Part shown: positions 6,001 through 9,000 of the stretch, piece by piece
Layout: each line of letters opens with the position of its first letter
Numbering within the stretch: the stretch's first letter is position 1
Virus record (IMG/VR): IMGVR_UViG_2695420745_000006
DNA from: a virus
Lineage: Duplodnaviria > Heunggongvirae > Uroviricota > Caudoviricetes
Length of the DNA stretch: 13,211 nt
Direction: 5' to 3' (one strand)
Made by a program: the position numbers

Positions 6001-9000
6001 TTCTTATTGACGGTCTGCGTGATTTCATTGCTGACATCCGTAATGGACGTCCTGATTTCAGCCAGGTCAGGCGCAAGCTGACCGTTATCAATCTGCGTCC
6101 ACAGCTCCTGAGCCAGATGGGTTTTCCCTATCTCGCCTTTGAAAAAATCCAGATAACCGGATGCATCATCACTCGGCTGACCAACAGCCTCCACGAATGC
6201 CGATTTGCCAACGGTGTTCACACTGCGGATATAAAAGTAATAATCATGGCCCGGTTTGATATTGATACTGGCGGCTATCCAGTACAGCGCCGTGCCAAGA
6301 TAGCGTGCTGTGGTTTCAACCTGCCTGATATCCGCAATCCGCTTTTCCGAGAACCAGAACTCAAACTGTACCGTCGGATCATAAACCGCAAGATGCGGCG
6401 TGGCGGTTATCTGAAAATAGCCCGGCGTCAGCTCAATCCGCGACAGCGCTGCCGGTGCGGCAATCCGGAACGATACCGACGCCGGATCGCCCTGCTGCCC
6501 CCACGCATTTACTGCCCGGACTGTCAGCCTGTAGTTCCCCAGCGCCAGTTGTGTGAAGCGGTAAGTGGTTTCCGTCGTCCGGGCCGTGCTGACCAGCCGC
6601 TCACTGCCGTCATCCGCTGTTACGGTCAGACGGAGCAGGAAGCTCACGCCCTTCACCACCTTCGGCGTGTCCCAGCGCGCCAGCACCTGATATTCCCCGC
6701 TGTCTGCGGTGACTTCGGCAGTCAGGTGCTGCACCGCTGGCGGCGTGACACCATTCACCGTGCCGCTCTGGTCGCCGTCAAAGTGCGCCCCGTTATCCAC
6801 GATGGCTTCTTTTTCCGGCACATGCTGCACGGCGGTGATGGCATACGTGCCGTCGTCGTTCTCACGGATACTCACGCAGCGGAACAATCGCTGGTGCAGC
6901 GTCGGCAGCTTCAGCCCCCACACGCTGTATTCAGCAACACCGTCAGGAACACGGCTCACTTTTACCTTCACGCCGTCGGTGACGGACTGGACCTCCACGC
7001 TGACCGGATTCCCCTGCCCGTCAACCAGGCTTATCAGCGTGGTGCCGGAGGATGGCAGCGTGATTTCACGGTCGAGCGTCAGCGTCCGGGTCTGGCTGTT
7101 CACCGCCAGCACGCGCCCGCCGGTGCGGATACCGGCATAGTCATCATCGCAGATTTCAATGACATCGCCCGGTACATGACGAAGCCCTTCAGCACCCACG
7201 CTGAAATCCACGGTCTGCGTCTCCAGCAGTTCCGTTTTAATCAGCCACAGCCCGGCGCGGTGTGCCTGCCCCCGGCTGGTACAGCCAAAGGCATCCATCT
7301 TCGTGACGTTACGACCGTAACGGACAATGGCCTGCGTATCCTCCACAAGCTCTGTCGCCGTCNNNNNNNGTCTTTCTGGCTGGCGGTTCAGGGTATTTGA
7401 GGTAGCGTCTGACCGTCCGTTCAGAGCAACCAATCTGAGTCGCAATATCGACGATGTACGCGCCCTGCTGGCGCATTTGCTTTATCATGTAAAAGTCCTC
7501 TCTGCTCAGCATGTTGATGTCCTTTCTGGTGTGAGAACCTTAAGGAAACAACATGTTGGGTGGAGCGGACAATCCAAATGGCGAATTACCGTCTTATATC
7601 ACTGGCGCTGACACTTCATCACCTCCGGACGTAAATCACCATCCTTTGGTGCATTCAGAAACGCGTTCAGTGTCCCCGGTGCATCAGTCGGTGCCACATC
7701 AATATCCCCGACACGGGTTGGCTGCCAGCCGTTACAGTGAAGCGCAACCTCGTAATACCCCGGCTCAGCCTCAATCACATAAGCACCGTTATTGTCCGTC
7801 ACGCAAGTGGCAACAACGTGTGCCACAACGGTCGGACTGGTTCTTCTGGCCCGCAGTTCAATCGCACAATTTACGACAGGTTTACCCGCCCCATCTTTCA
7901 GTACACCTGAAATCTTTACTGCCATATTCACCCCACAAAAAGCCCGCCTGAACCAGCGGGCAGTCATAACACTGTGTTACCTGGCTAATCAGAACTTATA
8001 ACCGACACCCACGATGAAACCGTCAGTGCGCCAGTCACCACTGCCGGAACCTTCATAAGCAAGGTCAATGGCCACGGATTCGGTCGGGTTAAACTGCACG
8101 CCAGCCCCCCACGCCAGAGACGTGTTGCTGTGGCGACCGCCATCACTTCCGGTCAGCACATCGTGCGTTTTCCCCTTGTTGTCAGTTACGCGGAGATAAT
8201 CCCCGGAGAAGGTCGACACACGGCTGTAAGCCACGCCCGCCATCGCATACGCGCTGAACCATTCATTCACGCGCACAGACGGCCCCGCCATCACGCTGAA
8301 CCAGCGGTTACGCACGGAATCCTCATGCCAGCGGGTATCGCTGTAATGCGTTTTTTGCTCATCTTCAGCGTTGGCATAACTGAATGACGTAATCAGCCCC
8401 AGCGTGTCCGTAAACTCATAACGGTATTTCACGTTAATGCCCTTCAGGTCATCGCTGCCTGGCATATCAGTATGGGTCTGAAGATACCCGGCGCTCAGCG
8501 TGGACTGATGTTCAGACGCCCATGCAGGCGCACCGGATACGGCCAGACAGATGGCTGCGGACAAAATGGCTGCACAAACTTTACGCATAATTACCTCTCG
8601 CTTTTCTGCAATAAAAAAGGCACCATTTCTGGTGCCCGTATCTGGGTTATAAAATTCAGCTAATCGTGATGCCTGCAGTGGCTTTCTTCATCACCACAAC
8701 CAGCAAATCGCTGATACTTGCTGTGGGATACCAGCCATTTACCAGCCATGCCGATACAGAAAACTCCAGCGTCATGTGACCGTGACCGGCAGGCATATCA
8801 ATAACACCCGTATATATCAGCGTATTATCCAGGGTCGTTCGGTTATAAATTTCAGCACCGTTTTTCTTCACTATCAGGCGGCATGACGAATAAATATTGT
8901 TATTCTTCCGCTCATGTTTAGCACCGCGAAACGCCACCGCGGGAATAACAATTTGCCGATCAAACGGCTGATCGTCATAAACCCTGACGGTAATGGTCCC

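Follow-up and report, generated by a model that had tools for sequence, protein, structure and literature searches.

Why should two copies of one prophage gene differ almost only in two short segments at the cell surface? The question arises in a stretch of 13,211 nucleotides from a virus of the Caudoviricetes (IMG/VR record IMGVR_UViG_2695420745_000006; hereafter the window, meaning the whole stretch that was analysed). The window carries two alleles of lom, a gene encoding an outer-membrane beta-barrel protein of the Ail/Lom family. The initial annotation reported that the substitutions between these alleles, here called lom A and lom B, cluster in two short segments, and it offered either diversifying selection or loop-cassette exchange as the cause. 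Comparison with lom alleles from many other prophages points to the second mechanism. The clustered differences are probably explained by old, discrete surface-segment alleles that recombination has reassorted on a homogenized backbone.

Differences between lom A and lom B

The four peptides quoted in the initial annotation are present exactly as given in lom A and lom B, both on the minus strand, and the interval reported with them (7989-8588) covers lom B only. Over 159 comparable codons, the two alleles show 16 amino-acid differences. Thirteen of these fall within codons 37-49 (segment 1, six differences) and 73-81 (segment 2, seven differences), that is, within 22 of the 159 positions (hypergeometric P = 5.8e-11). 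In a best two-window scan, the observed clustering was equalled by none of 2000 random placements. The reported clustering is therefore real. The description of the alleles as near-identical outside the segments requires correction, as three further replacements (V66I, I132L, and D150G) were found there.

Fold and location of the variable segments

Lom B is clearly a member of the Ail/Lom family at the lambda position. The protein matches Pfam PF06316 over its full length (residues 1-199 of 199; 428.6 bits against a cut-off of 23; E = 4.1e-129). The gene lies between J, which ends at 8656, and the N-terminal domain of stf (7599-7967), and the same order occurs in complete genomes. The N-terminus resembles a signal peptide, with a predicted helix at residues 2-18 followed by AWA-SE, and the C-terminal GVGYKF ends in an aromatic residue, as is typical of barrel insertion signals. 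An AlphaFold2 (AF2) model built from 57 sequences, distant family members included, contains eight strands (Table 1), with a predicted local distance difference test (pLDDT) score of 90.9 and a predicted template modelling (pTM) score of 0.77. This model supersedes a weak first model based on 23 close homologues (pLDDT 71.9, with loop 1 below 50). Foldseek relates it to Ail (3qra/3qrc) and OmpX (1qj9) with a probability of 1.0, an E value of about 1e-15, and target-normalised TM-scores of 0.80-0.85, the values for 3qra and 1qj9 being 0.83-0.85.

The model places segment 1 at the tip of the loop-1 hairpin, predicted to comprise the top of strand 1, the turn at residues 41-46, and the top of strand 2. 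Each strand displays an alternating apolar pattern for approximately 10 residues from its periplasmic end. In strand 3, this apolar belt stops at A72, and residues 73-81 are all polar or charged in both alleles. Hence, segment 2 is predicted to be an extracellular strand arm, namely the exposed distal half of strand 3 just before the turn at residues 82-85, and not the loop-2 turn. Because strands 2 and 3 are adjacent in the inferred topology, the two segments probably form one contiguous patch. The membrane boundaries derive from the predicted model and the sequence pattern, not from a solved Lom structure. The earlier assignment of the segments to extracellular loops 1 and 2 thus holds for segment 1; segment 2 is exposed as proposed, but it belongs to strand 3 and not to the turn. 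Placement in strands had been named as an observation that would speak against the proposal. Segment 2 formally touches on this point, yet the idea of surface exposure still holds.

Age of the segments and tests of selection

The two segments stand apart at silent sites as well as in protein sequence. Between lom A and lom B, the proportion of synonymous sites that differ (pS) is 0.035 in codons 1-36, 0.69 in segment 1, 0.27 in codons 50-72, at least 1 in segment 2, and 0.094 in codons 82-159. The synonymous excess inside the two segments is significant (Fisher P = 1e-8). The ratio of replacement to silent differences does not differ significantly between the inside and the outside of the segments (P = 0.10). 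In segment 1, the ratio of nonsynonymous to synonymous substitution rates (dN/dS) is 0.14, while segment 2 is saturated, with a ratio of nonsynonymous to synonymous proportions (pN/pS) of about 0.5. Synonymous differences are thus as concentrated as replacements, whereas a recent adaptive burst would have spared synonymous sites. This is the decisive point: the segments have a much deeper history than their flanks and do not result from recent diversification.

Four IMG/VR scans, each taking the best 80 matches to its query (lom B, lom A, and two C-terminal types of the tail-tip protein J), provided 320 loci and 184 distinct full-length, indel-free lom alleles, to which the population values given here refer. 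A protein search added 28 further full-length alleles of 199 residues, each representing one 90%-identity cluster. Over the 184 alleles, the ratio of nonsynonymous to synonymous nucleotide diversity (piN/piS) is 0.38-0.46 in the two segments and 0.15-0.17 in the rest of the mature protein. No region reaches a piN/piS above 1, and none exceeds 0.5 when the lom A-lom B pair and the alleles are taken together. Diversifying selection, the first mechanism offered in the initial annotation, is therefore not demonstrated as an ongoing process of point substitution, either by the ratios between the two copies or by those across alleles.

Within the two sequence types of segment 2, named after their motifs, piN/piS is 0.07 for NAEDE and 0.42 for GDKNR. 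The NAEDEQKTH cassette combines high synonymous diversity within its type (piS 0.43) with almost no replacement diversity (piN 0.03). This combination implies that the NAEDE form is itself old and under strong constraint.

Discrete types and their reassortment

Segment 2 exists in two families only. Among the 184 alleles, 89 carry an NAEDEQKTH-like cassette and 94 a GDKNRQLTR-like cassette, and no intermediates between the two were found in this set, except at boundary residue 81. The exchange of one cassette for the other flips the net charge, which is +2 for GDKNRQLTR and -2 for NAEDEQKTH. Average nucleotide divergence between the families (dxy) amounts to 60.5% in the cassette and 6.3% in the backbone. 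Within each family, cassette diversity is approximately 1.4 times that of the backbone. Loop 1 displays about three forms, namely Q.HTDM..K, HA[RS]TNV, and HARTNA..N. Nucleotide divergence between the Q and H types is 35%, compared with 7.9% in the backbone.

The types are found in shuffled arrangements. All four combinations of loop-1 type (Q or H) and cassette (N or G) occur, and P0013, which combines the Q type with GDKNR, has 24,859 member sequences. Different cassettes are carried on backbones as near as 6 nt to each other, and the same cassette is carried on backbones that differ at up to 69 of 495 positions. The four-gamete test returns a minimum of 53 recombination events (Rm = 53) in 597 nt. 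Four chimeric alleles (P0073, P0087, P0092, and P0097) consist of a signal peptide of the lambda-Lom type and a loop 1 that is longer by 8 residues, joined at LKGINVKYRYE to a backbone of the 199-residue type. These chimeras are clear cases of natural exchange of the loop-1 module between distant lom lineages. Mosaicism extends beyond the exposed parts of the protein, as it also involves the signal peptide and strands 7-8, the latter in three forms (...GFIVGVGYKF, ...AFIVGIGYRF, and ...NSFIVGVGYKF). Loop-cassette exchange, the second mechanism originally offered, is thus supported by saturated synonymous sites, discrete types, the presence of all four combinations, and the Rm of 53.

Programmed hypervariation by a diversity-generating retroelement, a shufflon, or a silent cassette was considered and rejected. 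Within the 13-kb window, there is no template repeat and no open reading frame (ORF) for a reverse transcriptase or an invertase, and the differences between alleles involve all four bases. The only repeats in the window are large prophage duplications.

A mechanism for the reassortment may be outlined as follows. The lom gene is the lambda-type 'moron' located between J and stf and encodes an eight-stranded Ail/OmpX-like barrel; lom A and lom B are alleles that stem from separate fragments of lambdoid prophages in a single draft genome. Lambdoid prophages, whether resident together in a cell or newly arriving, could recombine inside lom via conserved flanks (GINVKYRYEFTD, YSDTRWHEDSVRN). The backbone would be homogenized in the process, and a few old surface-segment types would persist and be reassorted. 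Because the types are old, discrete, conserved within type, and shuffled, the clustered substitutions are probably the footprint of segmental (mosaic) exchange and not of recent diversification by point mutation. That two conserved forms of opposite charge have been maintained suggests selection, either balancing or dependent on the niche, which may act on the ligands of the patch or on whatever recognises it. Candidate partners of the exposed patch include host ligands, antibodies, and phage tails.

Variability across the Lom protein

Mean entropy over the alleles is 1.00 bit at residues 73-81 and 0.67 bit in loop 1. The remaining 58 extracellular residues, which form the loop-2 tip, the strand-4 arm, the strand-5/loop-3/strand-6 hairpin, and loop 4, average 0.20 bit and do not exceed the membrane and periplasmic residues in variability (0.26 bit; one-sided P = 0.27). 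Exposure alone therefore does not give variability. The signal peptide, with two or three discrete forms and a mean of 0.61 bit, is as variable as loop 1. The expectation that variation concentrates in loops consequently survives for the two segments only; it fails for the loop-2 tip, the strand-4 arm, and loops 3 and 4, and it does not account for an equally variable signal peptide. Across the family as a whole, each of the four loops is variable in both length and sequence.

Length changes affect codons 96-116 of lom. Many database alleles carry deletions or duplications of 14-16 residues between repeated WFS motifs (RWFSVMAGPSVRVNEWFSAY), whereby strand 4/5 material is removed or doubled. 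Alleles of this kind include P0004, P0010, P0011, P0019-P0021, P0042, and P0046. Such indels suggest frequent slippage and the decay of lom copies in cryptic prophages.

Competing explanations

Ongoing positive selection by point substitution on exposed loops, imposed by host immunity or phage predation, could have made the differences directly. It agrees with the predicted surface exposure of the segments, with their excess of nonsynonymous differences relative to the rest of the gene (Fisher P = 1.5e-13), and with the inverted charge of the cassettes. Such selection is nonetheless an unlikely source of the pattern. Synonymous sites are saturated in the very same segments, dN/dS in segment 1 and piN/piS everywhere remain low, and the replacement-to-silent ratio does not separate the segments from the rest. 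Moreover, segment 2 has two discrete forms without intermediates, and purifying selection operates within type, most visibly in NAEDE. Relaxed constraint, under which unconstrained loops would drift in the lom copies of cryptic prophages, could draw on the frameshift in lom A described below, on the many alleles with indels at the WFS repeats, and on the freedom of the loops in sequence and length across the wider family (PMC3417512). However, the cassette and loop-1 types of lom A are the same as in many intact alleles, GDKNR being present in 94 unique intact sequences. Within-type piN/piS is low, and conservation of the other 58 extracellular residues equals that of the membrane strands, which leaves relaxed constraint or decay a most improbable explanation.

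The likelihood that mis-assembled repeated prophage DNA produced the differences or the mosaic is practically negligible, and for the alleles this possibility is largely refuted. The window does contain joins made of N (7363-7369, 10121-10141, and 10791), one of which has a different gap in an IMG/VR contig of the same sequence, and chimeric ORFs run across joins. Yet both alleles lie wholly within N-free stretches, lom B and its flanks are 98.8% identical to complete genomes, and the lom A type is intact in complete genomes. Both cassettes also recur across hundreds of independent contigs and within protein clusters that have thousands of members.

Several points weigh against the reassortment of old segment types. 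The piN/piS of the segments is 2-3 times that of the rest of the protein, and past diversifying selection at the origin of the types is plausible, although it is inseparable from relaxed constraint. H-type loop 1 includes single-residue variants (R/S39, V/A42, and D/N47) that look like point diversification and would suit positive selection. As to a donor of the NAEDEQKTH cassette, no similar motif was found in 40 diverse family representatives. The IMG/VR samples are biased, contain many near-clonal prophages, and are not phylogenetically independent. Finally, the ratios reported here are Nei-Gojobori counts on 9-13 codons, which are approximate, ignore recombination and phylogeny, and do not amount to site models.

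Association of the cassette with the tail-tip protein J

Upstream of lom A and lom B, J has C-terminal, receptor-binding ends that are unrelated to each other (5097-5549 compared with 8656-9108; loci L161-L320). Among the loci sampled by J type, the type upstream of lom A (J-I) occurs with GDKNR in 54 of 55 cases, and the type upstream of lom B (J-II) occurs with NAEDE in about 53 of 65. The squared correlation with J type (r2) is highest at the cassette, where it reaches 0.63. The normalised disequilibrium coefficient (D') does not single out the cassette: signal-peptide and loop-1 types score just as high, because a single homogeneous clade makes up the J-I group. No major J subtype is restricted to one cassette; the WLVND subtype, for example, includes 20 NAEDE and 10 GDKNR alleles. 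Co-variation of the cassette with J is therefore strong in raw counts, but it is explained by the homogeneous J-I clade and breaks down within J subtypes. Since lom and J are only 70 nt apart, linkage suffices for the association.

These data bear on a further reading based on co-adaptation, in which the Lom patch would be adapted to J's receptor-binding end (or to Stf), Lom would act in self-exclusion, and cassettes would travel with J types and not be shaped by the animal host. Over-expressed lambda Lom was reported in a 2025 preprint to protect strongly against lambda-vir and not against T7 (bioRxiv 10.1101/2025.02.28.640651), and both the raw counts and the r2 peak at the cassette are in line with co-adaptation. 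Given that D' is as high for the signal peptide and loop 1, that both cassettes accompany every major J subtype, and that the short spacing makes linkage expected anyway, we regard co-adaptation as highly improbable. It is likewise very unlikely that the strand-3 cassette and loop 1 constitute a specificity determinant matched to the phage's own J, whereby Lom would mediate type-specific self-exclusion or adsorption blocking and co-evolve with receptor-binding modules and not with the animal host.

Related systems, distribution, and relevance

Discrete surface-loop types that recombination reshuffles on a conserved barrel are known from the neisserial proteins PorA (VR1/VR2) and Opa (HV1/HV2). 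These proteins have many types per region, together with documented positive or immune selection, whereas lom has two strand-3-arm types, roughly three loop-1 types, and a piN/piS below 1. Lom belongs to the small number of prophage proteins produced in lysogens.

Lambda Lom (PF06316, structure 9wso) belongs to the same family as lom B (PDB sequence match, E = 2.5e-50), is encoded at the same position between J and the side-tail-fibre gene, and shares motifs in the C-terminal half (AYEGSGSGDWRTDGFIVGVGYKF). The two proteins are only about 47-51% identical, and lambda Lom differs by an 8-residue longer loop 1 and an unrelated strand-3 arm sequence. The 199-residue type represented by lom B is the common one in Shiga toxin (Stx), cdt, and other E. 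coli prophages. Structure 9wso was not among the PDB matches for J or Tfa, and a literature search found no paper mentioning it. Literature support for outer-membrane localisation and a lysogen phenotype concerns lambda Lom only, for which a citing paper names a link with buccal-cell adhesion.

Y. pestis Ail (3QRA/3QRC) and E. coli OmpX (1QJ8/1QJ9) resemble lom B in having an eight-stranded barrel, four extracellular loops, and strands that protrude past the membrane. Unlike lom B, they are encoded by chromosomal genes, are about 30-33% identical, and have shorter loops. Loops 1-3 of Ail form ligand (heparin) sites, and in the Ail family, membrane strands are conserved while loops are variable (PMC3417512). 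That variability lies between orthologues or paralogues, whereas lom displays discrete allelic cassettes in one gene. Lambdoid mosaic genomes (reviewed in PMC9836094) also contain segments of different histories, with conserved flanks as crossover sites, but their modules are genes or gene blocks, whereas those in lom are 27-40 nt inside one gene. Family-level loop variability and lambdoid mosaicism are thus already known, and the lom cassettes are a new example of a known pattern, one to be expected of a surface protein that mosaic prophages encode. No paper on discrete loop-1/strand-3 cassettes or on allelic loop variation in lom turned up in literature searches.

Of 5,426 complete E. coli genomes, 4,616 contain a match to a 141-nt piece of the 3' part of lom; the median number of places in a genome is two and the maximum is 14. 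Most E. coli genomes carry lom, generally in several copies. Proteins with at least 80% identity to lom B are encoded in approximately 164 phage records. If the exposed patch has few stable, reshuffled forms, a simple typing scheme would become available. It would also pose a clean experimental question, namely what the 9-13 residues make Lom bind, be it host cells, complement or matrix ligands, antibodies, or phage tails. There is also a lesson of method: where differences between paralogous prophage genes are clustered, recombination should be tested before positive selection is read from them.

Decay of lom A

An 83-nt deletion between two CTGGCG direct repeats (junction 4550-4555) has interrupted lom A. 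The deletion causes a frameshift that leads to ...SLAH-stop and ends the protein at 160 residues. The final 40 codons are either missing or no longer in frame, and the end of strand 6 together with strands 7 and 8 is gone. The same deletion allele is present in six IMG/VR contigs from different source genomes (L081-L086). The best-matching complete E. coli genomes contain an undeleted lom A-type gene with identical flanks. The allele is therefore common in other respects, and lom A represents a decayed copy of it. The initial annotation missed the frameshift and the pseudogene state of lom A.

Organization of the window

The 13.2-kb window consists of pieced-together tail regions of lambdoid prophages, with every gene on the minus strand (Table 1). 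J-II has PDB sequence matches to lambda gpJ (E = 1e-143 to 1e-167). A third, partial lom copy ends at the single-N scaffold join at 10791 and differs from lom A at 2 of 182 nt. The chimeric ORFs that cross the N joins fuse the lom N-terminus to J in one case and a transposase helix-turn-helix (HTH) to J in another. IMG/VR contig UViG_2698536366_000004 is 100% identical over lom B and over lom A, and its first join consists of a single N, with 106 nt less than in the window. Because the blocks are joined by N runs and the gap differs in that contig, the window is a draft-assembly scaffold in which the order and adjacency of the three blocks are unproven. Both lom copies come from one assembly. 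They are joined only via N gaps, and the join differs in the IMG/VR contig, which gives no ground for assuming gene conversion between tandem copies.

Table 1. Coordinates of features in the window (nucleotides) and of structural elements in Lom B (residues)
Feature	Position	Strand	Remarks
tfa (copy 1)	781-1362	minus	
stf (copy 1)	1362-4451	minus	
lom A 3' remnant, out of frame	4510-4549	minus	+1 frame would read TDGFIVGVGYKF-stop
lom A (copy 1)	4544-5026	minus	truncated pseudogene, 160 codons
lom A segment 2, GDKNRQLTR	4784-4810	minus	net charge +2
lom A segment 1, HARTNVPGSDDLN	4880-4918	minus	
J-I (copy 1)	5097-7362	minus	tail-tip protein J of the second type, C-terminal part; immediately upstream of lom A
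Transposase-type HTH fragment (copy 2)	7370-7512	minus	47-residue N-terminal fragment (Pfam HTH_23/HTH_7), ending at N gap
stf N-terminal domain (copy 2)	7599-7967	minus	truncated
Terminator-like hairpin	7942-7961	minus	just downstream of lom B
lom B (copy 2)	7989-8588	minus	intact gene for 199-residue Ail/Lom outer-membrane beta-barrel
lom B segment 2, NAEDEQKTH	8346-8372	minus	codons 73-81; predicted distal extracellular half of strand 3; net charge -2
lom B segment 1, QTHTDMPGSDDLK	8442-8480	minus	codons 37-49; predicted loop-1 hairpin tip
Terminator-like hairpin	8618-8637	minus	between J and lom B
J-II (copy 2)	8656-9912	minus	tail-tip protein J of the lambda-like type, C-terminal part; immediately upstream of lom B
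Third lom copy, partial (copy 3)	10792-10973	minus	lom A type, first 60 codons including HARTNVPGSDDLN
J (copy 3)	11044-13158	minus	
Strand 1	residues 29-40		AF2 model
Loop 1	residues 41-46		AF2 model
Strand 2	residues 47-58		AF2 model
Periplasmic turn	residues 59-62		AF2 model
Strand 3	residues 63-81		AF2 model
Loop 2	residues 82-85		AF2 model
Strand 4	residues 86-106		AF2 model
Turn	residues 107-110		AF2 model
Strand 5	residues 111-135		AF2 model
Loop 3	residues 136-140		AF2 model
Strand 6	residues 141-166		AF2 model
Turn	residues 167-171		AF2 model
Strand 7	residues 172-181		AF2 model
Loop 4	residues 182-187		AF2 model
Strand 8	residues 188-198		AF2 model

The transposase-type HTH fragment, which may resemble IstA of the IS21 family, adjoins the truncated N-terminal domain of stf, and this junction is not shared by the complete genomes that match lom B. 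Around positions 2800-4250 (minus strand), several hundred codons of stf are rich in Ala, Ser, and Thr and repetitive, with long spurious ORFs in other frames on both strands. A simple scan detected no sigma-70 consensus promoter around lom B. The terminator-like hairpins on both sides of lom B are consistent with an autonomous 'moron' unit.

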